The notes under the pieces are model-generated. The model was given only the letters and a program-made list of their open reading frames with translations. It was not told the origin of the DNA and made no database searches. A stretch of 64,000 bases of DNA from the IMG/VR virus record IMGVR_UViG_3300027749_000064, one strand, 5' to 3'. Made by a program: the position numbers and the translations under genes. Shown piece after piece: positions 133 to 15,291 of the stretch. This stretch comes from an uncultured virus (IMG/VR IMGVR_UViG_3300027749_000064). Its lineage: Duplodnaviria > Heunggongvirae > Uroviricota > Caudoviricetes. How positions within the stretch are numbered: the first letter of the stretch is position 1; each line of letters opens with the position of its first letter.

Positions 133-231
133 ATGATAGATGAAAATGACTGTAAGAAGCATCACTGGGTCATATTATTTCAAAGAAAATTATGCGATAT
201 ATGTGGCAAAGAGTGGATCAAAGTGGAGTAA
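133..231 (+). CDS. Possible Zn-ribbon micro-protein (MIDENDCKKHHW...CDICGKEWIKVE)
   Basis: Manual translation, 32 aa with C..H.W...CxxC pattern. A similar frame (EQCKHKW...CEYC, stop 134-136) lies just upstream and overlaps by ATGA but has no ATG. Confidence 0.35.
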   Translation: MIDENDCKKHHWVILFQRKLCDICGKEWIKVE

Positions 232-238
232 AGTGGAG
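203..238 (+). promoter_or_regulatory. GTGG repeats with 10-bp period, MraZ-box-like
   Basis: GTGG at 203, 213, 223, 233 (AAAGTGGAG twice); partly inside a micro-ORF. Confidence 0.4.
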
Positions 239-354
239 AATATATTCAATAGATGATGAATAATATCAGTTAATAATTATATATACATTGTTACTGGTTA
301 TAGAGCATATCATAATGCCCATCGTAATGTCAAATTTGCACACACATAAAATTA

Positions 355-370
355 TGTGATAAAAATCACA
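355..370. promoter_or_regulatory. CRP-type box
   Basis: TGTGA-TAAAAA-TCACA; second perfect box at 442-457. Confidence 0.7.
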
Positions 371-677
371 CTTTTTTGTGCATATTTTAGACAATTTTGA
401 TACAAATGTACACAATATGTTCACATTTTGAGATTATTCTGTGTGATTTTGATCACATTTTAAATATATTTATTTTTAGATACATTTATAAGATCATATA
501 CACAAACTTCCAGAGAATTTTATTATGCGTTCGTAATGTCTGGAAAAATATATAGCTCTTCGTAATGTTTATTATATGTATATGGATTAAGATTAAAAAA
601 GTTCCAGAGAAATTCCCGCCGAGTTCGTAATGTCTGATTAATTAATTAGCACGACACGACATTTTATATATTTAAAT

Positions 678-712
678 AAAGAAAAGCCCCGAGCAACATG
701 AAACTCGGGGCT
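678..712 (-). terminator. Intrinsic terminator
   Basis: AGCCCCGAG/CTCGGGGCT stem followed by a T-run on the minus strand, just after ORF 734-1030. Confidence 0.8.
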
Positions 713-733
713 AGGACTTAGTGTAGCGTCCCT

Positions 734-1030
734 TTATACTTGTAGGTACTCAACAGATCTCGGCACCTGTCTACCTACATTCCCCGTCAGACCCAACTCC
801 TCTAGGGAAAGATTTAAGTATTTACATATAGATTGTGTTTCTGCTAAGTGGAATGGAACTATTTTGGCTGTTGCCATTATGTTTATGTAGTTAACCATAT
901 ACTGAAGCAATGATTCATTTACATAAGCACTCTCGTGAAGCATTTTGTAAGCCAAAGCAGCAGGCGATAGGTCAGCGTGGCCTAGGCCCTCAACTATCTG
1001 CTTGTGTAACTTCTCGCTACGCACTGTCAT
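734..1030 (-). CDS. Hypothetical phage protein
   Basis: ORF track; translationally coupled to neighbour. Confidence 0.7.
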   Translation of the reverse strand: MTVRSEKLHKQIVEGLGHADLSPAALAYKMLHESAYVNESLLQYMVNYINIMATAKIVPFHLAETQSICKYLNLSLEELGLTGNVGRQVPRSVEYLQV

Positions 1031-1326
1031 TACTCTGTCTCCTCAACTGCTAAGATTAAATTTTCCTTAACTAGCCAGTCTACTACATCAGAGCCCTCTA
1101 TGTCAAACCCGCCCCAAGGTGTTGCCCAGAATGTATTCCAGATTGTTTTTAGATCTGTGTTAGGGGCCAAGATTGAATCCCATTCGTCTAGTTCCAGGAC
1201 CACATCACGTATGGTGTCCCATACAAACAGCCAACCCAGCGAGAAACCGACGGGGAGTGTCTGAAGATCATCTAGAATACTATTAAACTTATCATACAAC
1301 TCATCACCTAGATTTTCATTAACCAT
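1030..1326 (-). CDS. Hypothetical phage protein
   Basis: ORF track; start trimmed to MVNENL, which follows a GGAG SD. Confidence 0.7.
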   Translation of the reverse strand: MVNENLGDELYDKFNSILDDLQTLPVGFSLGWLFVWDTIRDVVLELDEWDSILAPNTDLKTIWNTFWATPWGGFDIEGSDVVDWLVKENLILAVEETE

Positions 1327-1549
1327 TTGCCTTCTCCAAATCTGATTGATAGAATATGATATCATAGCACATATTGTAGATATTTTCAATAGCGTCTAGA
1401 TAACCAATTGCCCATTGTTCATTTCCAAAATCCTTATGTTGCCATTCATACATAATGTTTTTCAGCTCCCCCTGCAGTACATCAATTAAAGGAACATTAT
1501 GTTCTATGGCCTTTTTCATTTGTGGAGATAAATCATTGTAATTAAGCAT
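1319..1549 (-). CDS. Hypothetical phage protein
   Basis: ORF track; overlapping start and stop with neighbours. Confidence 0.7.
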   Translation of the reverse strand: MLNYNDLSPQMKKAIEHNVPLIDVLQGELKNIMYEWQHKDFGNEQWAIGYLDAIENIYNMCYDIIFYQSDLEKANG

Positions 1550-2273
1550 TTGTCATCTCCCTATGATCTTCGCACTTGTCTATATCTGCACCATAGAAGC
1601 AATTGCGGCATACTTCATTTTCACAATCTTCACACCACATATCAGAAGGGTCTCCAATATATTTGTAATCACATTCATTGCATTGCCAGTTCCAAGATGT
1701 ATCTGATATTACTTCACCTCTAAGGATTTCCATTTCCCCGCCCCAGCCTGTCTCCTCTTCATATGAAAGCGTAAAGAGTAGTTCAGGATACTGAGAAGAT
1801 AGATTAGTTAATGCTTCATTAGGAACACCCCAAGCAGTATTAAAGTTATAATAAACTACTTTGTTATCGCCATTGTCAACAGGACCTTCCATACGTGTAT
1901 CAGGATATTGTTCTTCACTAGACACGGCAACGTCCCACTTAACACCCCAGTTGCGGAGATTCCAGTTGTACCAATCATTGCCGACCTCTTGTTCGGCGTG
2001 GACTTCTTTCCACATATCTTCGCCTTTGGCCTCAAGGTTAACTTTTGCCTTTGCGTGATTGTGATACGCCTCTAAGTCTGTTGGTTTAATTATATTCCAG
2101 AATGCGAAAAGCGGGGCGGGATAAAGAATATCTTTTGCAACACTTGTCTTAGTATTAATATCCCAAGCGTGGGGATGAAATACTTTAAATGGTTGATTCA
2201 TTTGATTTACTAATTTAGTTACAGATTCAGGATTACCTTCTATAGTTAATCCATTAAATACCCAGTTTGGCAT
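1542..2273 (-). CDS. DUF1281/YubB ferredoxin-like domain protein with C-terminal Cys-rich segment
   Basis: MPNW start; WYNW...NWGVKWD, FNTAWGVP, YPEL.F.L.YEE.G motifs. Confidence 0.75.
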   Translation of the reverse strand: MPNWVFNGLTIEGNPESVTKLVNQMNQPFKVFHPHAWDINTKTSVAKDILYPAPLFAFWNIIKPTDLEAYHNHAKAKVNLEAKGEDMWKEVHAEQEVGNDWYNWNLRNWGVKWDVAVSSEEQYPDTRMEGPVDNGDNKVVYYNFNTAWGVPNEALTNLSSQYPELLFTLSYEEETGWGGEMEILRGEVISDTSWNWQCNECDYKYIGDPSDMWCEDCENEVCRNCFYGADIDKCEDHREMTNA

Positions 2274-2455
2274 TATTTATTCTCCTCATCAAAGGCTCCA
2301 TAACTTGGAGTTATTCCGCTAAGCCACTCATAATAACTTAATTTTCCCCCTAATTCCCAGCATTGTAAACAGAAAGTGCCAAATTGTTGTGCTACAACAT
2401 AAGCAGGAATTGGAGAAATTGTTTTACAATTAGTACAAGTTATTCTTTCAGTCAT
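2273..2455 (-). CDS. Small CxxC...CxxC protein
   Basis: ORF track; AAAGGA SD and promoter upstream. Confidence 0.7.
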   Translation of the reverse strand: MTERITCTNCKTISPIPAYVVAQQFGTFCLQCWELGGKLSYYEWLSGITPSYGAFDEENK

Positions 2456-2482
2456 TATTGTCCTTTCGTTGGGTAGGGTCTT

Positions 2483-2504
2483 ATTGTAGCATAGGGTACT
2501 GACA
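2483..2504 (-). promoter_or_regulatory. PafBC/RecA-NDp-type promoter 1
   Basis: TGTCAG-TACCCTATGC-TACAAT. Confidence 0.8.
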
Positions 2505-2509
2505 TTTGG

Positions 2510-2743
2510 CTAGTCCCGCACCTTGTCAGTAGCCTCATCGTAAAGCAACCAGTCTATATCTATAGAATAGACAATCGTAATTGATTTGTCTAAAAGCTGG
2601 AGAACCACATGGTCCCCCTCTGTGTATCCAATTAGTTTAGCATCTTGAATTTGTTCACGACTAAAAGATCTATCTTCGTAAACGGCGGGAATGTGATTAA
2701 AGTAATAAGTATCACTATGAATACTATCCATTATATCAAGCAT
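2510..2743 (-). CDS. Hypothetical phage protein
   Basis: ORF track; start trimmed to MLDIMD. Confidence 0.6.
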   Translation of the reverse strand: MLDIMDSIHSDTYYFNHIPAVYEDRSFSREQIQDAKLIGYTEGDHVVLQLLDKSITIVYSIDIDWLLYDEATDKVRD

Positions 2744-2957
2744 TAGAATACTCCAATTCATTTTGTGATAAAGTAAATACAGTAAAATTAACACCATTGT
2801 TATAACAGAAGTTAACACAATTTATCAGAGATTCTGATTCATATAGTGGATATCCACCTGTATCGTAATCATTATCTAAATCAGGATATACTTCAAACAT
2901 ATTTATACCCCCTGGTGATACTGAATAATCTATTTCATATATTCTAAAGGTTTCCAT
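2736..2957 (-). CDS. Hypothetical phage protein
   Basis: ORF track; begins just after a sigmaA-like promoter (TAGACT-N18-TAAAAT), possibly leaderless. Confidence 0.65.
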   Translation of the reverse strand: METFRIYEIDYSVSPGGINMFEVYPDLDNDYDTGGYPLYESESLINCVNFCYNNGVNFTVFTLSQNELEYSNA

Positions 2958-3000
2958 AGGTAGATTTTAGCATATCGTAATCGTAAAAGTCTAATCGTAA

Positions 3001-3106
3001 TCTCATATTTTGAGATATATTTCAGTGATATATATCACATATCGTAAAGTGTGATTTTAATCACACCCCCGCGCCCAGCTGTCCCACTTTGTCAAGTGGG
3101 ACACGC
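3001..3106. promoter_or_regulatory. Regulatory cassette: TCTCA-N5-TGAGA palindrome, two CRP-type boxes (3024-3039, 3050-3065), 10-bp inverted repeat (3080-3103), GACACGC
   Basis: Read directly from sequence. Confidence 0.65.
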
Positions 3107-3112
3107 AAGGTT

Positions 3113-3316
3113 TTACATATAACTTACTATAAATTCCATAGTCATATGCAAATTACAATCACAATCATTTTTTGCAGAATCAAAGTGATCTTGATATTGC
3201 TCATAGATAAGTGTTACAAGTTCATCTATAGTGTATGGTTTATGTGTTGTGGTAATTGTGAACCTCTTCCATATATGAAATAAAACTTTCAAAACTGTGC
3301 CAATGTCCATTATCAT
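3113..3316 (-). CDS. Hypothetical protein (start uncertain)
   Basis: ORF track; overlaps upstream ORF. Confidence 0.4.
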   Translation of the reverse strand: MIMDIGTVLKVLFHIWKRFTITTTHKPYTIDELVTLIYEQYQDHFDSAKNDCDCNLHMTMEFIVSYM

Positions 3317-3605
3317 TTACCATTTGAGTAGTGAAATCTATTTCTACTACTTCGTCCATATAAGGTGTGTCAGCATTTGCTACATAGATACCGAAGCCTG
3401 TTTCGCTATCCCGCCCATCTTTTGTTAGTTGGTCAATTACAATGCGGAGAGCATACGGAACATCTCCCATATCAGTACGCTTTTTTGCGGCGGTAAGTGC
3501 TAACGCTAAATCCTCACGCCAAGTTGTTTCGCCCCAATGTGAATATAGCACAATGTTAGGCATATCTAACTCTGTTTTAAATACGAAATTAACTCTTGCT
3601 CCCAT
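3240..3605 (-). CDS. Hypothetical phage protein (LYSHWG motif)
   Basis: ORF track; start trimmed to MGARVNF after AGGAGG SD. Confidence 0.75.
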   Translation of the reverse strand: MGARVNFVFKTELDMPNIVLYSHWGETTWREDLALALTAAKKRTDMGDVPYALRIVIDQLTKDGRDSETGFGIYVANADTPYMDEVVEIDFTTQMVNDNGHWHSFESFISYMEEVHNYHNT

Positions 3606-3701
3606 TAAAGTATTCCTCCTATCGCTATAAATACTCCAAGTAATACTGCTAAGATTAAAACTACTGCCGTTGAGTTCATTATCATATCCTATCAAATAAG
3701 T

Positions 3702-3728
3702 GGCGGGAAGTCAATTACCCTTCCCGCC
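3702..3728 (-). terminator. Hairpin, probable terminator
   Basis: GGCGGGAAG/CTTCCCGCC just after the stop of 3737-4153. Confidence 0.55.
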
Positions 3729-3736
3729 CAAGTTAA

Positions 3737-4153
3737 TTAGAGATATTGAGCGATAGACTTCATAGTGGAAGCATTAACTGTTTCCTCATCTGTCATACGC
3801 AAGATGTTAAGAGCGTTTGTGATTTCCTCTTTGGAATTTTTGTATTCATAATTTGCCATTTGGTTAAACTCACGGGTTGGCTCAACAGGGAAGTTAGAGC
3901 CTTTTGTGCTGACATCAAAATCAACATTTAGAGTTTCACTCCAAGAACGATACCCTGTGCGAAGGTTAGTTGCGGTTGCGATATTAGCGAGAGCGAAGTC
4001 TTTTAGACTATCTTGCCAAGCCTTGTATGCTTCTTGGAACTTTGCTTCGTTGGCTTCTTGACCAGCGTAGTCTATCTCAATTTGGGCTAACTTAGCCTCT
4101 AGTGCCTTGATTACCTTTGGTGTTGCCACCTTTACTGTTATTGCTCTAGCCAT
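3737..4153 (-). CDS. Hypothetical phage protein
   Basis: ORF track; SD and dedicated promoter. Confidence 0.8.
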   Translation of the reverse strand: MARAITVKVATPKVIKALEAKLAQIEIDYAGQEANEAKFQEAYKAWQDSLKDFALANIATATNLRTGYRSWSETLNVDFDVSTKGSNFPVEPTREFNQMANYEYKNSKEEITNALNILRMTDEETVNASTMKSIAQYL

Positions 4154-4186
4154 TTGGTTTCCTTTGTTAGTTGGGTTGGTAGGATT

Positions 4187-4208
4187 ATTATATCAGGGGG
4201 GTCTGACA
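4187..4208 (-). promoter_or_regulatory. PafBC-type promoter 2
   Basis: TGTCAG-ACCCCCCTGA-TATAAT. Confidence 0.8.
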
Positions 4209-4216
4209 TAAACTTA

Positions 4217-4277
4217 AGTGCTAGTTCTTACTTACGACATTGGGCTAGAACTCTAGCAAACTGCCCCTGTTTCGTTG
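4217..4277 (-). ncRNA. Candidate small pseudoknotted RNA
   Basis: Own promoter, no ORF seen; GGGC/GCCC crossing UGCUAG(A)GUUCU/AGAACUAGCA. Confidence 0.4.
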
Positions 4278-4283
4278 TCCCCT

Positions 4284-4305
4284 ATTATATCATAGGGGTC
4301 TGACA
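4284..4305 (-). promoter_or_regulatory. PafBC-type promoter 3
   Basis: TGTCAG-ACCCCTATGA-TATAAT. Confidence 0.8.
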
Positions 4306-4533
4306 TTATGCTTCGTGCTTGGGCAAATCAACACGCACATTTTTCTGTATGTTAGAACTAATTAACTTACCTTGAAAAGCGACCATCATTTTTGCCAATT
4401 TCATTTCATCACCAGATGATAGTTCAATCTGGTTATCATTTAAGACTACATATTCAACGCCATATTGAATAGCCTTGCCCAATCCATAGCCCATTTGGGC
4501 TTTGGACGGGACTTCTAAAGTAATAACTGCCAT
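4306..4533 (-). CDS. Hypothetical phage protein
   Basis: ORF track. Confidence 0.7.
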   Translation of the reverse strand: MAVITLEVPSKAQMGYGLGKAIQYGVEYVVLNDNQIELSSGDEMKLAKMMVAFQGKLISSNIQKNVRVDLPKHEA

Positions 4534-4534
4534 A

Positions 4535-5158
4535 TTAGGATTCCTCTCTTACATCATAAATAGAATAATCATTTACATCTACATCAGCACCATAAGTGGA
4601 TACTGAAAGTTCATCATTTAACATAGTTTCTAAATCATAATTATCGGTTAAAGATACACGCATAATTCCACTTACTTCTATTGTGGCAGAAAACTCTATT
4701 TCTTTACTTAGTTCAAGATTAAATAAATCTGCGATAGTTGTTAAAGTATCTTGGTCATTACTGTCATCATAAGCGTCAATAATTATGTTATGAAGTGTAA
4801 CTAACTTGTTGTTGAAATCAGCAACATCACTCTTAAGTTGACGGGCTTCACGAAGTTTCCACTCTAAATCATTAACTTTATCAGTTTGATAAGTTGTTTC
4901 GTTATTCTCAATTATCTTGTAGGTAACGAGTAGGTTTGGGTTATATTCTGTTGAAATATCCATTTGTTCCTCTTTCTTTGTAGTTGGGTCTATTGTAACA
5001 TCTACCACCGACATCAGTATCATTTGTGTATCTGTCATACATTTTGGACACATATCACTTTGTGGAAGTCCATTAGATTTAATAGTCATTACAATATGGC
5101 TATCGCAATTTGGGCATACATAATCCCATTTAAACCAGGTTTCATTTTTATTTGTCAT
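4535..5158 (-). CDS. Hypothetical protein with N-terminal CxxC...CxxC ribbon; probable internal start at 4963
   Basis: ORF track; internal promoter and GAGGA SD before MDISTEY. Confidence 0.7.
   Translation of the reverse strand: MTNKNETWFKWDYVCPNCDSHIVMTIKSNGLPQSDMCPKCMTDTQMILMSVVDVTIDPTTKKEEQMDISTEYNPNLLVTYKIIENNETTYQTDKVNDLEWKLREARQLKSDVADFNNKLVTLHNIIIDAYDDSNDQDTLTTIADLFNLELSKEIEFSATIEVSGIMRVSLTDNYDLETMLNDELSVSTYGADVDVNDYSIYDVREES
4992..5013 (-). promoter_or_regulatory. PafBC-type promoter 4 (intragenic)
   Basis: TGTCGG-TGGTAGATGT-TACAAT. Confidence 0.75.
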
Positions 5159-5165
5159 AGCGAGT

Positions 5166-5194
5166 ATTTTAGCAGGTTACTCACGGGTAATCAA
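5166..5194 (-). promoter_or_regulatory. sigmaA-type promoter with palindrome in spacer and GACACGCC next to -35
   Basis: TTGATT-N17-TAAAAT with TGn. Confidence 0.7.
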
Positions 5195-5239
5195 ACGACA
5201 CGCCGTAAAACTCAGGGTGATTTTTATCACACTCGTAAC

Positions 5240-5266
5240 GACACGCCCGACCTCGGGGGGCGCGGC
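5240..5266. repeat. GC-rich dispersed repeat, copy 1 (one extra G)
   Basis: GACACGCCCGACCTCGGGGG(G)CGCGGC; CRP-type box at 5216-5231. Confidence 0.95.
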
Positions 5267-5267
5267 C

Positions 5268-5305
5268 CATGCATAATTATACATTGCAATGCATATTTAT
5301 ACATT
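5268..5305. promoter_or_regulatory. Tandem ARG (ArgR) boxes
   Basis: CATGCATAATTATACATT-GC-AATGCATATTTATACATT (18+2+18). Confidence 0.7.
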
Positions 5306-5314
5306 GAAGCTTTG

Positions 5315-5390
5315 CGATCCGTACGGGATTTGAACCCGTGGTCTCTACAGTGACAGTGTAGTGAATTAAACCAAACTATTCTAACGGACC
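5315..5390 (-). tRNA. tRNA-Asp (GTC), CCA not encoded
   Basis: Manual cloverleaf: acceptor GGTCCGT/ACGGATC, D arm GAAT/ATTC, anticodon arm CTACA-CTGTCAC-TGTAG, T arm ACGGG-TTCAAAT-CCCGT, discriminator G. Confidence 0.95.
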
Positions 5391-5396
5391 TTGCGG

Positions 5397-5421
5397 TGAG
5401 CAGTTTTTACACTTGCTCAGG
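5397..5421 (-). other. Conserved hairpin motif, copy 1
   Basis: CCTGAGCAAGTGTAAAAACTGCTCA; other copies at 10812-10836 and 11356-11380. Confidence 0.65.
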
Positions 5422-5432
5422 TGTTGCGAATT

Positions 5433-6461
5433 TTATTTCGCTAGTGCTAAGACTTGCTTAACAATTTTATTTTTTTCAGCAGTTACAACAGGGTCAAAAC
5501 CACTTGCGCCTGCCATTAGGCTATCGCCATCTTTTCGGGCTGTGCGATAATAATCTAGGCGTTCTGTGAGAGCATTTACAACACCCCACGCAGTACCCTT
5601 GATATTATTATTGGTAGGCGAATTGTGATAAAGTTCATCAAGCAATACAACCTTATTTTCCCATTTCTTGATTGAACCCTTTTTGTCCAATTCAGGCTTT
5701 GGGTACATCTTGTTAATGATTTCTGAAAACTTTTTATCAGTAACAGAAATTGCGAATAGTTCTTGCGCTTGCTTTTCAAATTCATCAGCATATGCGAAAG
5801 TTAATCCGAGAGCCTCTCGTGCTTGAGCAATTTTACCATCAACAGTTTGTGTATGACGGATTTTGAAACTCTGCTTTGCTTTTTTCATAGCAAAATTAAG
5901 AGTGTTTTGGCACATAACACGAACAGGGGTAATAGCAGATTGAACCGCTACTGAGCCATCGTGTGAAGTCCAAACAATTAGATAAAGTTTTGTTTCATCG
6001 TTCACACCTTTAGGGTCTAATACGATTGTGCGGGGAACGGACATTGTGCCAAACACAACATTGCCACCCTTGAGAGAGCCTGCGCTTTCCCAAAATACAT
6101 CTTGATTTCCATCGTGTAAGTTATCAGCAAACGAAAATAATTCCTCGTTTTGAACTTCTTTATAGCGTGAACCTACAACGGAGAGAACATCAGTTTGTCC
6201 CGCAGTATAAGGGTTATCACGAATTACAAGTTGATTATCCTTGAGAGAGTTCCAATTCTCAGGGAGATAATCAGCAACAGGAGCAAGGCGAACGTTCCAA
6301 TTAGATAGTTTAGCACCATCTAACATTTGAGCAGTTGTTACTGCTTCATCTTGATTGAATACCTTATTGGCAAAAGAGTGCCAAGCGGGTACTGTGCGGA
6401 GATTTACGGCAAGAGAAACTTCTCCGCCTTCAACCTCTGATTTATGAGCCAAGTTGGTCAT
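5433..6461 (-). CDS. DUF932 family phage/plasmid protein
   Basis: PAWH, VGSRYKEVQN, ESAGSLKGG, SHDGS, TPVRVMCQNTL, GTAWGVVNALTE motifs. Confidence 0.9.
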   Translation of the reverse strand: MTNLAHKSEVEGGEVSLAVNLRTVPAWHSFANKVFNQDEAVTTAQMLDGAKLSNWNVRLAPVADYLPENWNSLKDNQLVIRDNPYTAGQTDVLSVVGSRYKEVQNEELFSFADNLHDGNQDVFWESAGSLKGGNVVFGTMSVPRTIVLDPKGVNDETKLYLIVWTSHDGSVAVQSAITPVRVMCQNTLNFAMKKAKQSFKIRHTQTVDGKIAQAREALGLTFAYADEFEKQAQELFAISVTDKKFSEIINKMYPKPELDKKGSIKKWENKVVLLDELYHNSPTNNNIKGTAWGVVNALTERLDYYRTARKDGDSLMAGASGFDPVVTAEKNKIVKQVLALAK

Positions 6462-7246: not shown

Positions 7247-7517
7247 TTTCTATTGAATCAAACATATTTTGAATTTCTAGGGCTTCATCCGCCATTTTAT
7301 CAAAGTCCTCACCCATTAGCAAGTGCGACACTCTAGTAGCGACTACACTAGCAAGTAAAGTAGAATAAGCAAACATCATTTCAGAAATACGATCTAATTT
7401 TTCTGAATTACCTTCAGCATAGTCCCAAGCAATTTCACGAGCAGCATTCATCACTTCAATATCAATTACTGAATCAGCAGTCGCTTCTCTAATTTCAAAG
7501 AAAGTAGAAATACTCAT
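7233..7517 (-). CDS. Hypothetical phage protein
   Basis: ORF track. Confidence 0.7.
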   Translation of the reverse strand: MSISTFFEIREATADSVIDIEVMNAAREIAWDYAEGNSEKLDRISEMMFAYSTLLASVVATRVSHLLMGEDFDKMADEALEIQNMFDSIENGDN

Positions 7518-7723
7518 TATTCCACCACCTTTAATAATGCGTAAGAATTATTTTCGTTTAATTCATCTAAGATATCTGTTAGTTTAGGAACGATTAACGC
7601 CTTAAGCATATCCTCAAGCATAGCCACTTGTTGTTCATATGGGAGAGATAGTAGACGGCGGGCAGTAGGATTATTTTCATCCAATTCTGTTTCAAACTTT
7701 AGCGTGTGAGGGATTTTTACCAT
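7517..7723 (-). CDS. Hypothetical phage protein
   Basis: ORF track; SD. Confidence 0.7.
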   Translation of the reverse strand: MVKIPHTLKFETELDENNPTARRLLSLPYEQQVAMLEDMLKALIVPKLTDILDELNENNSYALLKVVE

Positions 7724-7757
7724 TTATTTATTGTCCTTTTCTTTGTTGGGAGTAGTT

Positions 7758-7779
7758 AGTATATCACGAGCCACCGACA
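7758..7779 (-). promoter_or_regulatory. PafBC-type promoter 6
   Basis: TGTCGG-TGGCTCGTGA-TATACT. Confidence 0.8.
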
Positions 7780-7843
7780 TTAGTTCGGTGGAGAAAGTGT
7801 TATCTATGAAATTATTCCATAGTGTATCAAGTTGATTATTCAT

Positions 7844-8047
7844 TTATTCCCCTTCGTCATATTCTAGGGACATAGGGAAGGCATCTAGCCCCATAAATCC
7901 CATATCTTCTTGATCATAGCACTCAGGGCAGACATAGTCATCGCCATATATTTCATATTCATCTACGGAGTAAAAAGTTTCTTTAGCCCCGCATATTTCA
8001 TAGTATAGACACGCTACTACAAAAATTTCATCTTGTTGATTTATCAT
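7844..8047 (-). CDS. Small acidic Cys-containing protein
   Basis: Start trimmed to MINQQD, downstream of promoter and AAAGG SD. Confidence 0.65.
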   Translation of the reverse strand: MINQQDEIFVVACLYYEICGAKETFYSVDEYEIYGDDYVCPECYDQEDMGFMGLDAFPMSLEYDEGE

Positions 8048-8078
8048 AAGTTTACCTTTCTTGTTGTTGATATTGGCA

Positions 8079-8100
8079 AGTATAACATAGGGCACCGACA
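8079..8100 (-). promoter_or_regulatory. PafBC-type promoter 7
   Basis: TGTCGG-TGCCCTATGT-TATACT; CRP-type box at 8129-8144. Confidence 0.8.
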
Positions 8101-8337
8101 CGATCAAACAACACGCCGCAAAACTCAGGGTGATTAAAATCACACTCGTAACACGGCGTGTCGGCTTGACAGCCGCGGCAAAAAATTTGCAGCTTTTGCA
8201 AACTACAAATTTATTTTTTTATTTATTCAAATTTATTTTTATATTTATTTTTTCTTGAATAAATTTTTTTATTTTTAATTGGTGTTGCCGCATTACTGCG
8301 ACGCAATTCTTGAATGCGTTTTACTTTTTCCATAATT

Positions 8338-8541
8338 TTATTTACCCCCAATTTTACCACCACGATACAAAATTTTTGTATGTAATTTCCCGCTTGGCTC
8401 TAATAAATTAACAGTTGCGTATTCATTAGCAAATCCCCAATCAACAAAACTGCGATAAGAATTTACTGCGTCTAACGCATTATCTAACACCATTGACCAA
8501 TGCGGTGCTTTGCCATCATAGGCACAAGTTATTTTGTACAT
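8338..8541 (-). CDS. Hypothetical phage protein
   Basis: ORF track. Confidence 0.7.
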   Translation of the reverse strand: MYKITCAYDGKAPHWSMVLDNALDAVNSYRSFVDWGFANEYATVNLLEPSGKLHTKILYRGGKIGGK

Positions 8542-8633
8542 TAGTTATTTCTCCAAACATTTATTGCATAGGGCATAATTATTTGAGAAATAAACACGAT
8601 AACATCTAACGCATTTGCTTAGTTTAGTTTTCA

Positions 8634-8822
8634 TTAGTTATTCTCCCAATTCTTGAATAGTTGGTGAAAATCTGCAATTTTTTCCGCAGAAATTTGAGTT
8701 GGATTACACTCACAATAATCAAAATCAAAATCTCCGTCTGGTGATGACCAACCTGTGAAACCTTGACCATAGCACTCAGGGCAAGTTAAAATTTCGGTGA
8801 TTACTTCTTTTACTTTAGACAT
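8634..8822 (-). CDS. Small protein with CPECYGQG...CEC motif
   Basis: Start trimmed to MSKVKE after AAAGGA. Confidence 0.7.
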   Translation of the reverse strand: MSKVKEVITEILTCPECYGQGFTGWSSPDGDFDFDYCECNPTQISAEKIADFHQLFKNWENN

Positions 8823-8864
8823 TAGTTGTCCTTTCTTGTTTGACATTTACACTTTGTTAATTGT

Positions 8865-8886
8865 ATTCTATCACCCACCACCGACA
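8865..8886 (-). promoter_or_regulatory. PafBC-type promoter 8
   Basis: TGTCGG-TGGTGGGTGA-TAGAAT. Confidence 0.8.
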
Positions 8887-8925
8887 AGGTGGCGAGTGTT
8901 GAACAGTTATCGCATAAGTAAATCA

Positions 8926-9147
8926 TTACTCATCTACTTTGATATAAACAGTTGCGAAAAAATCAGGCTTAGGGTAACCTTCGCCTGTGTAAGTTGGGCG
9001 AACTTTACAAGCGAACGCATAAACGCCTTCGCTTAAACCGCAAATATCTTTTCGCAATTTTGCGTATTGGATAATTCCGTCTTGACCTGTTCGGGCATAA
9101 GAACGGCTACGATAGTATTTTCCCTCTAGGGCTTCTGAGATTAGCAT
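8926..9147 (-). CDS. Hypothetical phage protein
   Basis: ORF track; SD. Confidence 0.7.
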   Translation of the reverse strand: MLISEALEGKYYRSRSYARTGQDGIIQYAKLRKDICGLSEGVYAFACKVRPTYTGEGYPKPDFFATVYIKVDE

Positions 9148-9254
9148 TATTTGCTACCTTCTTTCTTTGTTGAGTTAATTATAACATTTACCACCGACAC
9201 GGCAGACTGACGGCGGGTTTCAAGTACGTGTGCCTTGAATTCATCTAGGTTCAT
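9147..9254 (-). CDS. Micro-protein MNLDEFKAHV...
   Basis: Trimmed start after GAAGG SD and promoter 10. Confidence 0.5.
   Translation of the reverse strand: MNLDEFKAHVLETRRQSAVSVVNVIINSTKKEGSK
9178..9199 (-). promoter_or_regulatory. PafBC-type promoter 9
   Basis: TGTCGG-TGGTAAATGT-TATAAT. Confidence 0.8.
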
Positions 9255-9285
9255 TATTTGACCTTCTTTCTTTCTTGTTATGGCA

Positions 9286-9307
9286 AGTATACCAAAACCC
9301 ACTGACA
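9286..9307 (-). promoter_or_regulatory. PafBC-type promoter 10
   Basis: TGTCAG-TGGGTTTTGG-TATACT. Confidence 0.8.
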
Positions 9308-9426
9308 TTATTCTACTTACTAGCCAGTAATTCCATATTTTGAGACGCTCAAGCGGTGTGATAAATATCACACGACACGCCCGAAAGATGAATTTTAGAT
9401 GAATTTTAATCCACACGTAATCCACA

Positions 9427-9452
9427 GACACGCCCGACCTCGGGGGCGCGGC
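9427..9452. repeat. GC-rich dispersed repeat, copy 3
   Basis: Exact 26-mer; CRP-type box at 9357-9372. Confidence 0.95.
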
Positions 9453-9517
9453 AAAAAATTTGCAGCTTTTTAATTCTGCAAATCTTTTTTATTTTTATTT
9501 ATTTTTATTTATTTTTT

Positions 9518-9631
9518 TTATTTAAAATTTTTAAAAATTTCTTCAACAATTTTTAACTGTTCATCGTTAAGATGTTCAATTTGAATTGCATCTGCAAATC
9601 CAAAAATATCTTTTTGATTTTCATTAGTCAT
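9518..9631 (-). CDS. Micro-protein MTNENQKDIFGFAD..., not in ORF track
   Basis: Manual translation, 37 aa, overlaps upstream stop. Confidence 0.45.
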   Translation of the reverse strand: MTNENQKDIFGFADAIQIEHLNDEQLKIVEEIFKNFK

Positions 9632-9818
9632 TGAAACATGCTTCCCAAAAACGATCCGCATCAAAATTTGGATTATCGTTTTCAAAAATTGTTATGAAAC
9701 GATTTACCAAACCATTTTCAAATTCATTTGTAAAAGATGGGCGGGTTTCCAAATTATTTTCTTTTAAATAATCATTAAGGATTTTAGCCGTAGCGATATA
9801 AGTTTTTCTAGTCATCAT
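9624..9818 (-). CDS. Small protein, paralog of 10847-11026
   Basis: MMTRK.Y.ATA.ILN...DN..FD.DRFWE.CF shared. Confidence 0.8.
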   Translation of the reverse strand: MMTRKTYIATAKILNDYLKENNLETRPSFTNEFENGLVNRFITIFENDNPNFDADRFWEACFND

Positions 9819-9911
9819 TTATTTATTCTCTTCAATCTCATCTAGTAGTTCCCAAAGAATTGGCTCTAACGCTTTTGCGCTTTCATCTAATTTTTCTTGT
9901 AGTGTTTTCAT
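9819..9911 (-). CDS. Micro-protein MKTLQEKLDESAKALEPILWELLDEIEENK, not in ORF track
   Basis: Fills the gap between neighbours exactly. Confidence 0.6.
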   Translation of the reverse strand: MKTLQEKLDESAKALEPILWELLDEIEENK

Positions 9912-10118
9912 TTATTTATAGTATTCCATTTCTGTTAGTAAGTGAGCATAACCATCTTTATTAGACTTTAGCGATAATTCGCAAGGCTCGCATTTCCATT
10001 CATATTTTAATGTTCTACCTGTTCCCAATGTTGCAACAGCCCAATGGGTCATTTTACGAGAACACACAGGGCAGTAGCAAGAAATTTCTTGCCCTAGCCC
10101 ACCAATTTTAATAGTCAT
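9912..10118 (-). CDS. Small Zn-ribbon protein
   Basis: CPVC...CEPC. Confidence 0.7.
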   Translation of the reverse strand: MTIKIGGLGQEISCYCPVCSRKMTHWAVATLGTGRTLKYEWKCEPCELSLKSNKDGYAHLLTEMEYYK

Positions 10119-10312
10119 TATTTAACCACGCTTTCTTTAAATTCTTTTTGATTACAAGTTAAGGCAAGGATTTCACCCTTAGCATTTACGATACGAGCAT
10201 TTACTATATCGTGTTCATCACTAACATTAGTGATTTCATTTATTAGGTAATTCTCATTTTTCCAAATAAAGAGACACCCTACGAATAATTTATTTATAAG
10301 TGTTAAAGTCAT
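10118..10312 (-). CDS. Hypothetical phage protein
   Basis: ORF track; start trimmed to MTLTLI. Confidence 0.6.
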   Translation of the reverse strand: MTLTLINKLFVGCLFIWKNENYLINEITNVSDEHDIVNARIVNAKGEILALTCNQKEFKESVVK

Positions 10313-10506
10313 TAGATACACACCACGCATTCACACTTAGGGGCATTAACAGATAATAAAATTTTTAACAACGCTTTACGCTGTCCAAAATTTAAGCCAT
10401 AAGTGGATTTACACCCACCATTATTAAAATCGTGTATGATACGATTTTCTAATTCCGCACTAATATTTAGTGCCTTACCTATATTTATTTTATTTAGTGT
10501 AGTCAT
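10312..10506 (-). CDS. Hypothetical phage protein
   Basis: ORF track; AAAGGTGG SD. Confidence 0.7.
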   Translation of the reverse strand: MTTLNKINIGKALNISAELENRIIHDFNNGGCKSTYGLNFGQRKALLKILLSVNAPKCECVVCI

Positions 10507-10541
10507 CTTAGACCACCTTTCTTTATTGTTTAACTATCGTT

Positions 10542-10570
10542 AGTTTAGCAGACTTTCTGCCGAAAATCAA
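10542..10570 (-). promoter_or_regulatory. sigmaA-type promoter with adjacent GACACGCC
   Basis: TTGATT-N17-TAAACT; a second promoter TAGACA-N17-TACAAT at 10627-10655. Confidence 0.7.
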
Positions 10571-10738
10571 GGCGACACGCCGTAGATTTCTAACTTTTTT
10601 TTCTATATTTAATTTTCTATAATGGAATTGTAACATAAAAAATCGCTACTGTCTAGTATACTCGTGAGTAGTCTCAATATATGGAGCGTGGGCTTTGTGA
10701 TAAAAATCACAAAGATTTTTTTAATCGTACGTAAATGC

Positions 10739-10764
10739 GACACGCCCGACCTCGGGGGCGCGGC
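10739..10764. repeat. GC-rich dispersed repeat, copy 4
   Basis: Exact 26-mer; 34-bp identity with 6597-6630; CRP-type box at 10696-10711. Confidence 0.95.
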
Positions 10765-10770
10765 GAAAAA

Positions 10771-10784
10771 CGAACAGATGTTCG
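10771..10784. promoter_or_regulatory. Gram-positive-type LexA (SOS) box
   Basis: CGAAC-AGAT-GTTCG. Confidence 0.75.
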
Positions 10785-10846
10785 CATTAAAAAAATAGCT
10801 GTAAAAAAAATTAAGCAGTTTTAAAACTTACTTAGGTTTTTATTTT

Positions 10847-11026
10847 TTAAACGTTTAAATTTTTAAAACACTCTTCCCAAAATCTATCGCTATCAAATCT
10901 TTCGTTATCAGCGAAAAACATTTCGGAAAAATCATTTACTAAATCTTCAAACACTTCTAATTTCATTTCGCCACCATAAGAATTTAAAATCTCTGCGGTT
11001 GCTACGTAGTCTTTTCTTGTCATCAT
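10847..11026 (-). CDS. Small protein, paralog of 9624-9818, not in ORF track
   Basis: MMTRKDYVATAEILNSY...FADNERFDSDRFWEECF; AAGGA SD. Confidence 0.8.
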   Translation of the reverse strand: MMTRKDYVATAEILNSYGGEMKLEVFEDLVNDFSEMFFADNERFDSDRFWEECFKNLNV

Positions 11027-11057
11027 TTTTGTTCTTTTCCTTTTCTTTAGTTAATAG

Positions 11058-11136
11058 ATTAAGTGGGGCATAGGTTGATTACGGAGACTTACTCGCACTC
11101 TTGCCTTAAGACTCAGCGAAGCCCGACCCACTTAAT
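11058..11136 (-). ncRNA. Candidate structured intergenic RNA
   Basis: Closing stem AUUAAGUGGG/CCCACUUAAU around nested helices. Confidence 0.4.
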
Positions 11137-11152
11137 TATATTTATTATAGCA

Positions 11153-11323
11153 TTACTTAGATGTTTTAACCATTGCTAAACGCTTTGAGCCATTTGCTAA
11201 AGTTAAACCAACACGAGTTACTTTGTTAGAAATTGGAGCGAAAGAATTTATTCGTCCAGTAATTCCAGTTGTTGATGTTGTGAATAAATCACCGATTTGG
11301 TAAGTGTATCCTTGTATTGTCAT
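11153..11323 (-). CDS. Small beta-rich protein, paralog of 11404-11568, not in ORF track
   Basis: MTIQGYTYQIGDLFTT...TGRI...PIS..TRV; SD. Confidence 0.8.
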   Translation of the reverse strand: MTIQGYTYQIGDLFTTSTTGITGRINSFAPISNKVTRVGLTLANGSKRLAMVKTSK

Positions 11324-11403
11324 TTATTTTATATCCTTTTCTTTTGTTGGGTTGTTGAGCAGTTTTATATCTTGCTCAGGATATTTAGGGTATTTCCCTA
11401 AAC

Positions 11404-11568
11404 TTATGCGAGTGAAACTGTTGTGTAACGCTCTGTTCCATCAACATCAAGCAGAACACGAGTTAGTGTTTTGCTAATTGGTTCAATAGCCTTGATAACG
11501 CCTGTTACCTTGCTTTTTTGTGTAGTGAATAAATCACCGATTTGGTAAGTCTTGTTATTTATAGTCAT
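11404..11568 (-). CDS. Small beta-rich protein, paralog of 11153-11323, not in ORF track
   Basis: MTINNKTYQIGDLFTT...TGVI...PIS..TRV; SD and promoter. Confidence 0.8.
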   Translation of the reverse strand: MTINNKTYQIGDLFTTQKSKVTGVIKAIEPISKTLTRVLLDVDGTERYTTVSLA

Positions 11569-11600
11569 TTTTTTCCTTTTCTTTTGTTGTTGTTAGTGAT

Positions 11601-11622
11601 AGTCTACCATAGACTACCGACA
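11601..11622 (-). promoter_or_regulatory. PafBC-type promoter 11
   Basis: TGTCGG-TAGTCTATGG-TAGACT. Confidence 0.8.
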
Positions 11623-11630
11623 TTTGCTTT

Positions 11631-11816
11631 CTATCTTTGATTTAATAAAGATTTACAACCTGCGAAGGGGCATCTTATATGTTGCGCCCTATGGATTTTA
11701 TAAGTATATTTTCCGACATTAGAAAGGCGGGGGCTATGGTGAGTGCTACCATAAGCGGGGGCGGGAATTAGTAGTGCTATTAGAATTACTATAACTATTC
11801 TTTTAATCATTTCCAC
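11631..11816 (-). CDS. Small protein with signal-peptide-like N-terminus
   Basis: KRIVIVILIALLIPAPAYG. Confidence 0.6.
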   Translation of the reverse strand: MEMIKRIVIVILIALLIPAPAYGSTHHSPRLSNVGKYTYKIHRAQHIRCPFAGCKSLLNQR

Positions 11817-11910
11817 CCCTTAACTTCTTTAGCCATATAGTAAAACATCATACCAAAGAAAGGCAAAGATATCAACATTATAGCCCGTAGGGCATAGGTG
11901 AGATATATCA

Positions 11911-12075
11911 CTAGAGTACCTCATCTATATCAAAATTATCTACGGCTAGAAAGACATCTGCCATTTCATCAGCGTCAGATTTAGCCTCTGCTAATTCATC
12001 TAACATAGTATCAAAGGTATCGGCAAGTGTTTCCCACTTGTCTGTCTTTCTATCAAACGAATATGAGTAAGTCAT
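11911..12075 (-). CDS. Small acidic protein
   Basis: Start trimmed to MTYSYS. Confidence 0.6.
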   Translation of the reverse strand: MTYSYSFDRKTDKWETLADTFDTMLDELAEAKSDADEMADVFLAVDNFDIDEVL

Positions 12076-12218
12076 TATTTGACCCCCGCACAATTCATAT
12101 TGCCACTTCCGAGAGTAGCATAAGCAGAAAGTGGTCTACCATTTTGATAGATGATTTTTTCACTACAACGAGAGCAGGTTGTAACCTGTTCGGTAGGTTG
12201 AGTAGGATTGTGTAACAT
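12075..12218 (-). CDS. Small CxxC protein, first gene of the leftward arm
   Basis: Start trimmed to MLHNPT after GAGGT SD. Confidence 0.6.
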   Translation of the reverse strand: MLHNPTQPTEQVTTCSRCSEKIIYQNGRPLSAYATLGSGNMNCAGVK

Positions 12219-12279
12219 ATTAGTTACCTCTATTCTTTTAATTAGATTGAGAACCTTTCTCAATTTCTTTAATACTGTA

Positions 12280-12308
12280 ATTATAGCACACAAAATCGGA
12301 AAAGTCAA
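12280..12308 (-). promoter_or_regulatory. Consensus sigmaA promoter
   Basis: TTGACT-N17-TATAAT with TGn; GACACGCC at 12311. Confidence 0.8.
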
Positions 12309-12482
12309 GCGACACGCCGTTAATTACACGCTTGTAATTAGTGATATACACCACAAAACGCCCTATTTCTAGACATACTGGCGAGTAATGTCTAATATTC
12401 GGGCGCACTATTATTTTTTTATTTTTTTATTTAAAAAGTGTATCATGCATTTTAAAAATCCATTCACATTTTGACCAAATGT

Positions 12483-12498
12483 GGTTTCACGTGAAACA
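12483..12498. promoter_or_regulatory. parS-like site
   Basis: GGTTTCACGTGAAACA, 15/16 match to TGTTTCACGTGAAACA, intergenic. Confidence 0.8.
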
Positions 12499-12557
12499 AT
12501 TTTGAGGGGAGTGGCATAATGTTTTCTATTAACTATCTTAGAAAAATATCGTGGCAT

Positions 12558-15287: not shown

Positions 15288-15291
15288 TTTT

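Follow-up and report, generated by a model that had tools for sequence, protein, structure and literature searches.

The minus-strand arm at positions 200-12500 of this viral DNA carries a panel of regulator-binding motifs that is real, above chance and conserved in related phages. Its short transcription units are separated by a repeated regulatory cassette which appears, with moderate confidence, to be assembled from predicted sites for host proteins conserved in actinobacteria, and a set of host-factor-dependent promoters and operators is a somewhat favoured account of the arm, rather than a pure decoy. Because the sites copy those of the hosts' DNA-damage, ribosome, carbon, arginine and segregation regulators, the arrangement suggests that the phage times the arm through borrowed host transcription factors.

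The arm and its cassettes

The window, the whole analysed stretch of 64,000 nucleotides, is part of a 73,470-bp contig that is incomplete and ends in open frames; neither a terminase nor a DNA polymerase gene was seen on it. Its G+C content is 35% and its source type freshwater actinophage. The actinobacterial host assumed in the original prediction fits a WhiB gene on the contig, a portal 53% identical to those of Streptomyces phages and occurrence in freshwater metagenomes. Host-like genomes, as the term is used here, are small, freshwater-type Actinomycetes genomes selected for size from a class sample, and the phage's own host may differ. The arm had been called early. Since plain consensus sigma-A promoters are carried by the neighbouring plus-strand arm, which encodes GroES, WhiB, thioredoxin and SSB, the minus-strand arm is probably delayed-early or middle, not first-early. 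More than 40 of its small ORFs belong to no family, the products of the genes behind the PafBC-type promoters have no assigned function, and a tRNA-Asp gene (5314-5390, minus strand) lies between two cassettes.

Compared with 300 dinucleotide-preserving shuffles of the arm, TGTCRG-N10-TAnnnT occurs 11 times (shuffle mean 0.17, maximum 3), GTGA-N6-TCAC 10 times (0.15, maximum 2) and GACACGCC 11 times (0.11, maximum 2). Each of the three is found again in 11 related viral contigs, whose identity is only 65-86%; enrichment over shuffles and conservation in relatives, two of the checks proposed with the original prediction, both came out in its favour. The late region (17501-64000, 46.5 kb) holds no PafBC-type, CRP-core or GACACGCC motif, as had been noted for the structural region, although it does contain GAYACRCY (5 copies), GACAC (16) and GAAC-N4-GTTC, which is present once there and once in the arm (0.10 in shuffles) and is not significant alone. 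The promoter array is absent from three Streptomyces phages, cultured relatives by their portals (0, 6 and 1 matches versus 2, 3 and 0 in controls).

The proposed recurring order of motifs was confirmed along the coding strand. The cassette is entered through a terminator-like hairpin or an ARG or LexA box, followed by a 26-nt GC-rich element, the palindrome GTGAT-N6-ATCAC, GGCGTGTC with a -35 box and/or a PafBC-type promoter, and the gene. Identical counterparts exist in the host lineage for the SOS box (at recA), the WhiA site (at rpsL/rpsJ) and the PafBC promoter (recA type), and a near-identical one for the tandem ARG boxes (at argC).

The LexA and tandem ARG boxes and the parS site of the original prediction are all present and, as claimed, overlap no promoter. 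The SOS box CGAACAGATGTTCG (10771-10784) has the same sequence as the box near recA in host-like genomes and is lengthened to TTCGAACATCTGTTCGAA at the same cassette position in relatives. Tandem ARG-type boxes with a 20-bp period (5270-5303, minus strand) occupy a single locus in the arm and differ little from the pheT-argC operator in host-like genomes, in two of which the sole such locus, also with a 20-bp period, lies between pheT and argC-argJ; conservation in relatives is partial. The parS-like site, a perfect 14-bp palindrome (12483-12498) whose core TTTCACGTGAAA occurs once in the arm and 0.00 times in shuffles, is not conserved in six relatives. Two palindromes previously listed as unassigned (8183-8212 and 9453-9488) fold as A-run/hairpin/U-run structures and look like bidirectional terminators. 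A direct repeat of three AGTGGA units with a 10-bp period does exist (212-237, plus strand); its reading as a MraZ site is unsupported, with nothing similar in two host-like genomes.

Promoters and operators

PafBC promoters have the published consensus tGTCgg(N10)tA(N3)T and lack a -35 element (PMC8635444), and the trigger of PafBC is single-stranded DNA (PMC11804915). The phage motif equals this consensus, and across 71 non-identical instances from the window and the 11 related contigs the positions upstream of TGTC carry zero information content. All 11 copies anticipated in the arm were counted, each on the minus strand, where the genes also lie, and a start codon follows shortly downstream of 10. 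They are predicted to be the actual gene-proximal promoters. They precede ORF 11404-11568 (11601-11622, with a TGTCGG -26 element, N10 and TAGACT), a short ORF ending at 9147 (9286-9307), ORF 8926-9147 (9178-9199), ORF 8634-8846 (8865-8886), ORF 7517-7723 (7758-7779), the DUF932 gene 5433-6461 (6491-6512, conserved in three orthologous loci) and ORF 2273-2455 (2483-2504). Another lies within ORF 4535-5158 (4992-5013), ahead of a ribosome-binding site and an in-frame ATG (4964). The TGTCAGACC variant is found upstream of ORF 3737-4153 (4187-4208) and at 4284-4305, the one copy lacking a nearby start codon, before a conserved non-coding stretch. A composite promoter (8079-8117) combines a WhiA-like core (GGCGTGTT), the -35 box TTGATC, the PafBC -26 element and the -10 box TATACT. 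WYL genes are present in five of five host-like genomes, as adjacent, pafBC-like pairs in four, and TGTCAGTG-N8-TAnnnT occurs 5 and 9 times in such genomes (controls, 0 and 1), preceding genes for RecA, an OGG-like glycosylase, CarD and a LysM protein. Should the TGn-extended -10 alone suffice for sigma-A, as it might, TGTCRG would be an operator and not an activator site.

Eleven CRP-type boxes had been placed in the arm, of which 10 lie there: at 356-369, 443-456, 3025-3064 (two, 26 bp apart), 5217-5230, 6563-6576 (conserved in orthologous loci), 8130-8143, 9358-9371, 10697-10710 and 11898-11911. The eleventh is outside, at 13320-13333, where relatives have two. Distances from box to PafBC-type promoter fall into classes of 65.5, 75.5, 86.5 and 97.5, with a Rayleigh R of 0.79-0.80 at periods of 10-11 versus 0.18-0.35 at 7-8 in 23 non-identical contexts; common ancestry of the cassettes means that the phased spacings do not count as independent. 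The sequence between box and promoter is dissimilar across these contexts. A Crp-family gene was found in all five host-like genomes.

The GC element combines the core GACACGCC, which fits the WhiA core GAYACRCY (PMC11701221), with an extension of actinobacterial rpsL/rpsJ type. Its four copies (5240-5266, 6605-6630, 9427-9452 and 10739-10764) lie on the plus strand, opposite to the genes, and match the actinobacterial WhiA site upstream of rpsL/rpsJ. An exact 21-mer of the element was found at 56 genome loci (55 with Actinomycetota titles), and a 20-mer with at most one mismatch in 130 of 401 class genomes (one control match). All 30 of the 20-mer loci inspected are upstream of S12 (20) or S10 (10), with one of each confirmed by Pfam, and these sequences are among the rpsJ-operon WhiA binding sites of a published supplement (PMC11701221, Supplementary Table 3). 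The exact phage version is of the Nocardioides type; in host-like genomes the rpsL element differs from it at several positions and rpsJ is without the element.

Four GACACGCC cores abut -35 boxes, and GGCGTGTY stands 2-3 nt before the -35 in four phage promoters. In known promoters, the C-terminal domain of WhiA contacts GACAC upstream of the -35 and WhiB bridges to region 4 of sigma-A (PMC10243135). The best sigma-A promoter of the arm (12280-12318, minus strand; TTGACT-17-TATAAT with TG) has its WhiA core at 12311-12318, 2 nt upstream of the -35. Cores also accompany the minus-strand promoters TTGATT-17-TAAACT (10542-10581) and TTGATT-17-TAAAAT (5166-5204), and the transcript of the latter looks leaderless, as the ATG at 5158 is only 7 nt past the -10. 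The phage WhiB, the partner of WhiA, is divergent, with weak matches to WhiB4 and WhiB1 chains, and is encoded behind a consensus promoter 6.3 kb upstream of the window.

Readings of the arm

The motifs were observed, as were their enrichment, conservation and spacing, their identity with host-type sites and the corresponding factors in host-like genomes; from these we infer which factors bind, in what order, and the sign of their effects. The neighbouring plus-strand arm would first be read from its plain consensus promoters by host RNA polymerase with sigma-A, and the minus-strand arm would be switched on later via host activators. The 11 promoters that have TGTCRG at -26 and a TGn-extended -10 but lack a -35 would be driven by PafBC once single-stranded DNA has activated it, while WhiA and the phage WhiB would act on sigma-A promoters with GGCGTGTC ahead of the -35. 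A CRP-family dimer on GTGAT-N6-ATCAC, upstream on the same helix face, may tune the PafBC-type promoters. Full WhiA operators, the SOS box and the ARG operator at cassette entrances may gate read-through or, alternatively, add energy-state, DNA-damage and arginine inputs.

The two most abundant motifs could instead be read by phage-encoded factors, an activator or repressor on TGTCRG in the spacer of extended -10 promoters and a Cro/CI-like dimer on GTGAT-N6-ATCAC, with the likeness to PafBC and CRP sites due to mimicry or coincidence. Mycobacteriophage L5 stoperators and phiC31 CIR sites are precedents for such phage-dimer operators. We consider this unlikely. It gains from the density of the palindromes, 11 in 13 kb of phage versus 4-5 per 1.4 Mb in host-like genomes, from the many small ORFs without a family and from the incomplete contig, in whose missing part a WYL, CRP-like or Cro-like factor could lie, given the open ends and the unseen terminase and polymerase genes. 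ORF 734-1030, beside two palindromes, has HTH/HTH_3 look-alikes by language model (scores 0.91-0.93, 140-159 shared features), a lead only; its structure model is weak (pLDDT 66.7) and gave no fold match at E <= 0.001. The original claim that no cognate regulator is encoded stands for the window, where PafBC/WYL, CRP, ArgR, LexA, ParB, WhiA and MraZ domains were found in none of 78 ORFs by Pfam, nor by PHROGs (57 of 78 ORFs) or NCBIfam (30 of 78), and no HTH domain appeared in any ORF scanned; the upstream WhiB gene and the incomplete contig restrict it to that scope. The geometry, A/G alternation and missing -35 of the PafBC-type motifs are exactly those of host recA-type promoters, and phage factors would leave the letter-for-letter WhiA, SOS and ARG sites unexplained.

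That the cassettes are mainly recombination boundaries, held identical by gene conversion and shuffling gene modules among related phages, with transcription-factor likeness secondary, is very unlikely. Gene order around the cassettes does differ between the window and its relatives while cassettes remain at the junctions, and copies of the 26-nt element show 100% identity inside a genome and across genomes, against 65-86% for the genes. Such shuffling explains neither the identity to the host rpsL/rpsJ WhiA site, recA SOS box and argC operator nor the promoter geometry and phasing, and it is compatible with host-factor control without replacing it. Quite unlikely, too, is a sponge in which replicating phage DNA titrates WhiA, LexA, ArgR, ParB and CRP off host targets, possibly de-repressing the rpsL/rpsJ ribosomal operons and the SOS and arg regulons. 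The full WhiA operators, SOS box, ARG tandem and parS lie clear of recognisable promoters, each genome copy carries 11 WhiA cores, relative L004 packs an ARG-like box, a full SOS box and a WhiA operator into about 60 bp, and in Mycoplasma WhiA represses the rpsJ operon (PMC11701221). Yet single SOS, ARG and parS sites are weak sponges, parS is not conserved, and the commonest motifs, which lie close to genes, on one strand and in helical phase, are working promoter parts. Titration is moreover a by-product of any functional site, so separate selection for it is not needed. The original prediction offered reading of host physiology and decoy as alternatives; gene-proximal promoters, -35-abutting cores and phased CRP-type boxes favour the former, and the decoy half stays the less likely of the two.

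Comparison with known systems

Many operator copies across early-arm intergenic regions are familiar from the L5 stoperators and phiC31 CIR sites, and GIL01, CTXphi and 186 are controlled through host LexA. In these phages the operators are targets of phage repressors or of just one host factor; neither a repressor nor an integrase was seen here.

Like the middle promoters of T4, which are served by MotA/AsiA 'sigma appropriation' (PMC8635444), the PafBC-type promoters have no normal -35 and would depend on an adaptor that supplies upstream recognition and times middle genes; the T4 adaptors are phage-encoded, whereas the best candidate adaptor here is a host protein. With PafBC-dependent (RecA-NDp) promoters and their 'sigma adaptation', the phage copies share TGTCRG about 26 nt upstream, N10, TAnnnT and the missing -35, as described in the same source (PMC8635444). 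They differ in number (11 copies in 12 kb), in driving small genes and in the phased CRP-type box ahead of many of them, and their PafBC dependence is predicted. A literature search at the level of titles and abstracts found no published description of PafBC-type promoters in any phage.

The phage element shares the core GAYACRCY with the WhiA rpsJ operator and equals actinobacterial rpsL/rpsJ sites (PMC11701221), and GACAC just upstream of the -35, with a WhiB partner present, recalls WhiA/WhiB-activated promoters (PMC10243135). Unlike known WhiA sites, the phage copies are multiple and inverted relative to downstream genes, the orientation before rpsL/rpsJ being opposite. The WhiB is phage-encoded and divergent, and established cases of binding are limited to WhiA of Mycoplasma and GACAC sites of Streptomyces. 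Multiple sites for host global regulators are also found in cyanophages as NtcA sites and Pho boxes, with 1-16 NtcA sites per genome that the authors read as exploiting the host stress response (PMC3037559). The sites described there serve one or two regulators in a host of another phylum, whereas at least five are represented here, in a fixed, repeated cassette of which one site class is the core promoter itself.

Motif panel of the arm and the contig that carries it

Three motif classes are concentrated in the arm of small minus-strand genes at window 200-12500. Relative to 300 dinucleotide-preserving shuffles of this interval, the pattern TGTCRG-N10-TAnnnT is found 11 times (shuffle mean 0.17), palindromes of the form GTGA-N6-TCAC 10 times (0.15; an 11th lies just beyond the interval, at 13320), and GACACGCC 11 times (0.11), while none of the three appears in the 46.5-kb late region (window 17501-64000). 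The original prediction, which had described a panel of host-regulator sites confined to this arm, is borne out in its enrichment over both backgrounds. The recurring order that it had claimed is also confirmed on the coding strand, where the repeated regulatory block, or cassette, opens with an ARG or LexA box or a hairpin resembling a terminator, continues with a 26-nt G+C-rich element (the GC block), TTACGA and a palindrome, and then presents GGCGTGTC with a -35 box and/or a TGTCRG promoter ahead of the gene.

The same three motif classes recur in the same order in 11 related IMG/VR contigs. These contigs contain the exact GC-block 21-mer at 18 loci; their genes are 65-86% identical to those of the window and the GC block is 100% identical. 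Upstream of a DUF932 gene, the palindrome and the promoter form conserved islands at four orthologous loci. No promoter array was found in the three cultured Streptomyces phages whose portals are closest (0, 6, and 1 matches against 2, 3, and 0 for a reversed-pattern control), and a megablast comparison with 50,697 phage records gave no match for the arm. A degenerate promoter scan of IMG/VR gave at least 144 stretches, by rough estimate about the chance level for a collection of that size, and inference from it is limited to a few visibly clustered contigs.

Within a single virus contig of 73,470 bp, the window spans bases 8636-72635; the two differ at 23 positions, and the G+C content of the window is about 30-43% per kb. 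Small genes occupy the minus strand at 266-17177, and plus-strand genes begin at 17511, encoding a class II ribonucleotide reductase, large virion proteins, portal, protease, HK97-type capsid and a tape measure of 2551 amino acids. The 8.6 kb upstream of the window form a plus-strand arm with genes for GroES, a WhiB-family protein, thioredoxin, an HslV-like peptidase, and SSB. The contig is incomplete, as its ends fall in open frames and no terminase or DNA polymerase gene was seen in it. The WhiB gene and the portal, 52-54% identical to portals of Streptomyces phages of the Stanwilliamsviridae, point to an actinobacterial host. Sequence of the arm is present in freshwater and lake metagenomes, and three metatranscriptome runs contain 0.31, 0.27, and 0.17 of its sampled sequence words. 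An Rfam search of window 1-17500 found tRNA-Asp alone.

Several other features of the contig were observed. Three successive paralogous proteins of about 740 amino acids with EPTP-type repeats (29716-36393) are probably tail fibres or receptor-binding proteins. Tandem paralogous genes of 54-56 codons (11153-11323 and 11404-11568) have similar upstream regions, and a family search gave none for them. Four ACATTACGA-like and two TTCTCTGGAA repeats lie in the gene-free left end of the arm (250-740), along with two CRP-type palindromes and, at 685-712, a strong terminator; this region is a possible origin or arm boundary.

Promoters and phased palindromes

PafBC promoters are described as hybrids that combine a canonical -10 with a -26 element and have no -35, and their in vivo motif is given as tGTCgg(N10)tA(N3)T (PMC8635444). 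TGTC[AG]G-N10-TA...T, with PafBC letters and spacing, fits all 11 promoter motifs of the arm. Every one of these predicted PafBC-type promoters is confirmed on the gene strand, and 10 lie 25-45 nt ahead of a ribosome-binding site and start codon. When the window and its relatives are pooled, 71 non-identical instances yield the consensus aATGTCAGTgc....TG.TAtAaT, with an information content of about zero over the 23 positions upstream, and hence no -35; a minority of the motifs also have TTGAyy or TGGACA at that position. The phage and published promoters are alike in letters, in spacing and in the missing -35, and PafBC dependence is predicted from this likeness.

Five small Actinomycetes genomes (1.2-1.4 Mb), taken from a class-wide sample, served as presumed stand-ins for freshwater hosts. 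All five contain WYL genes, which in four form an adjacent pair of about 310-350 codons each. In two of these host-like genomes, TGTCAGTG-N8-TAnnnT occurs 5 and 9 times (control, 0 and 1), and the genes downstream include recA, an OGG-like glycosylase, a C5 methylase, CarD and a LysM protein. Because WYL genes coexist with the motif upstream of recA, the glycosylase and others, the candidate host lineage uses promoters of this type in its damage response.

Upstream of recA in host-like genomes (loci L146 and L150), the PafBC motif is preceded at 7 nt by a WhiA-like core, GACACACC, and an SOS box follows directly after the -10, so that three regulators would converge on one host promoter, as in the phage cassettes. 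In one small Actinomycetes genome, five PafBC-type motifs fall within 9 kb (G143:C1:443341-452560; loci L137, L139, L141, L143, and L145) in front of TPR, trypsin-like and unknown genes, a cluster that could represent a damage-controlled island or the remnant of a prophage under such control.

The motif at 4284-4305 (minus) precedes a conserved non-coding stretch in place of a start codon. Directly downstream, 4215-4283 (minus) is 87-91% identical in several relatives and its flanks 65-75%; the 80 nt at 4206-4285 fold at -12.8 kcal/mol, and the stretch may be a small RNA. Within the ORF at 4535-5158, an internal PafBC-type promoter (4992-5013) is accompanied by a ribosome-binding site and, at 4964, an ATG in frame, an arrangement shared by relative L020; a short C-terminal isoform is a possible second product.

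The CRP/GlxR consensus is the palindrome TGTGA-N6-TCACA, which the 11 GTGA-N6-TCAC sites of the window fit; its one-sided TGTGA form gives 15 strand-wise matches in the arm against 0.05 expected. A Crp-family gene is present in all five host-like genomes and none was found in the phage contig. Such palindromes number only 4-5 per 1.4 Mb in the host-like genomes. In the window and its relatives taken together, 23 non-identical contexts were measured from the centre of the palindrome to the start predicted for the next PafBC-type promoter. These distances group into classes of 64.5-65.5 (n=7), 75.5-77.5 (n=5), 84.5-86.5 (n=7), and 97.5 bp (n=2), with two outliers. The classes are about 10.5 bp apart, and the Rayleigh R is 0.79-0.80 at periods of 10-11 bp and 0.18-0.35 at 7-8 bp, values whose p-values are not literal since the cassettes share ancestry. 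As intervening sequences differ within a spacing class, the helical face itself seems to be kept. The phasing argues that a palindrome-binding protein, be it host CRP or a phage product, would cooperate with the promoter. The arrangement is class I-like, with absolute offsets that exceed the class I positions of E. coli by 3-4 bp.

Putative copies of host operators

The GC block occurs in four copies. Its exact 21-mer is found once in each of 56 genome loci which, by record title, comprise 41 Nocardioides, 14 other Actinomycetota and one Planctomycetaceae metagenome-assembled genome, the last a match that looks incidental. Allowing one mismatch, a 20-mer of the block is present in 130 of 401 sampled genomes of the class (124 of 395 once six genomes flagged unpublished are left out), and the reversed control gave a single match; copies are usually one per genome, or two about 4.6 kb apart. 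In all 30 further loci, the next gene downstream encodes ribosomal protein S12 (20) or S10 (10), with Pfam confirmation for one of each. This widely conserved rpsL/rpsJ upstream element is absent from Rfam, where the bacterial element gave nothing at gathering or E <= 5 thresholds, and a literature search by its sequence letters found no paper.

Upstream of the rpsJ operon, many phyla have been reported to share a conserved GAYACRCY core, and in Mycoplasma, which so far provides the only experimental support for function, WhiA binds this core and represses the operon (PMC11701221). In Supplementary Table 3 of that work, the same extended sequence is entered as a 'WhiA binding site' for species of Mycobacterium and of Streptomyces. 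Since GACACGCC fits the core, the 'GACAC sites' of the original prediction, which hold up with 11 occurrences against 0.11 expected, are now read as putative WhiA-type sites, the four GC blocks being full copies of the ribosomal-operon operator. In sequence, the copy on the phage is letter-perfect. A WhiA gene is found in four of the five host-like genomes, and WhiA is predicted to bind the phage sites. In these genomes the element at rpsL departs from the phage version, and rpsJ lacks it.

In Streptomyces, the C-terminal domain of WhiA reads GACAC upstream of the -35, and WhiB bridges WhiA to region 4 of sigma-A (PMC10243135). Four phage promoters have GGCGTGTY 2-3 nt ahead of a TTGAyy -35 box, among them the best sigma-A promoter of the arm (12280-12308). 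The phage WhiB gene, in the plus-strand arm, lies behind a consensus TTGACA-18-TACAAT promoter; its product matches WhiB4 and WhiB1 chains weakly and is for that reason left unplaced in the subfamily of WhiA partners.

The orientation of the GC block is opposite to that of the phage genes. As an intrinsic terminator it was rejected because it has no U-run and folds no better than shuffles (z = -0.44), and as a promoter because it lacks TAnnnT. A consensus fold of 24 bacterial leaders gave an invariant 5-bp stem, hence no covariation signal either way. The actinobacterial element (loci L022-L125) sits in the leader and exists in two forms with different possible hairpins, CCGACC/GGTCGG and CGCCC/GGGCG; hairpins further downstream in the leader covary.

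Single sites for other regulators were also compared with host sequences. The actinobacterial LexA palindrome is TCGAAC-N4-GTTCGA, and the predicted LexA box is upheld at 10771-10784 (CGAAC-N4-GTTCG), identical to the box abutting the PafBC-type promoter of recA in host-like genomes; at this point of the cassette, the full 16-mer is present in two relatives. No overlapping promoter-like site was found there, and a terminator was rejected on the weak RNA hairpin (-6.3 kcal/mol, z = -0.6). The parS consensus is a 16-bp palindrome; the site proposed as parS (12483-12498) retains a perfect 14-bp palindromic core but is absent from six orthologous loci in relatives. Each host-like genome carries two parS sites at one mismatch, and the contig showed no ParB. 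ARG operators consist of two tandem ARG boxes separated by 2 nt (PMC3293853). The tandem predicted in the arm, at 5270-5303, is substantiated by the expected 20-bp period and by its match to the sole such locus in two host-like genomes, between pheT and argC-argJ, with 26 of 28 box positions equal to the G143 operator in a string comparison. Relatives have one related ARG box or none. Each of the two 'unassigned palindromes' folds into a hairpin of 13 bp flanked by an A-run and a U-run (-12.6 and -13.3 kcal/mol), and both are read as putative bidirectional terminators. The possible MraZ repeats found no support: a triple AGTGG repeat with a 10-bp period and at most one mismatch is missing from both host-like genomes scanned (G098 and G143), though the true host MraZ motif may differ.

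Proposed host factors, alternatives and known systems

On balance, the arm is likely to be a regulatory architecture dependent on host factors, with binding predicted from its motifs. The most numerous motifs behave as working promoter parts, and sites without promoters may have a decoy role. A phage-encoded factor may act in place of the host factors, which is conceivable because the contig is incomplete. The ORF at 734-1030 is a possible HTH protein according to a language-model lead, yet none of its 29 homologues has a name, and its structural model (pLDDT 66.7) gave no fold match. The plus-strand arm has one GACACGCC and is free of PafBC-type and CRP-type motifs. Near-consensus TTGACA-18-TAnnnT promoters lie there at 1476-1505, 3875-3904, 6102-6131, and 6369-6398 (coordinates of locus L001, outside the window); their presence without PafBC-type or CRP-type cassette motifs suggests that this arm is read first.

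Dependence on host factors can be extended into a joint scenario, speculative and rather improbable as a whole, in which a freshwater actinophage lineage gave up phage-specific activators of its middle genes, host PafBC became the timer, and the WhiA-operator copies act with phage WhiB. Single-stranded DNA switches PafBC on (PMC11804915), and the start of phage DNA replication or the breakdown of host DNA would then fire the 11 promoters. Together with phage WhiB, the operators would either couple phage transcription to the energy and translation status of the host, or strip WhiA from rpsL/rpsJ and increase ribosome supply. In a bolder variant, transcripts that read through would include 26 nt antisense to the leader of host rpsL/rpsJ.

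The main promoter class of the phage appears to be the promoter type of a host DNA-damage activator. If PafBC dependence is true, it would provide a simple timing route for actinobacterial phages, from single-stranded DNA through PafBC to middle genes; phage WhiB proteins would gain a concrete role, and the promoters would offer natural test substrates for sigma adaptation. Among the papers listed in literature searches on PafBC and phage, RecA-NDp, and actinobacteriophage WhiB/WhiA, none was found to describe a phage with PafBC-type promoters or WhiA operators; an ACS Infect Dis 2025 paper on PafBC and mycobacteriophage resistance may bear on this.

Phages that exploit the sites of a host regulator are already known. 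Some temperate phages borrow LexA, and cyanophages borrow host PhoB. NtcA sites have been reported in 16 cyanophage genomes, with 1-16 in each (PMC3037559). Whereas these cyanophage and temperate-phage cases borrow one host regulator, the whole gene arm described here seems to be composed of host sites for five regulators or more.
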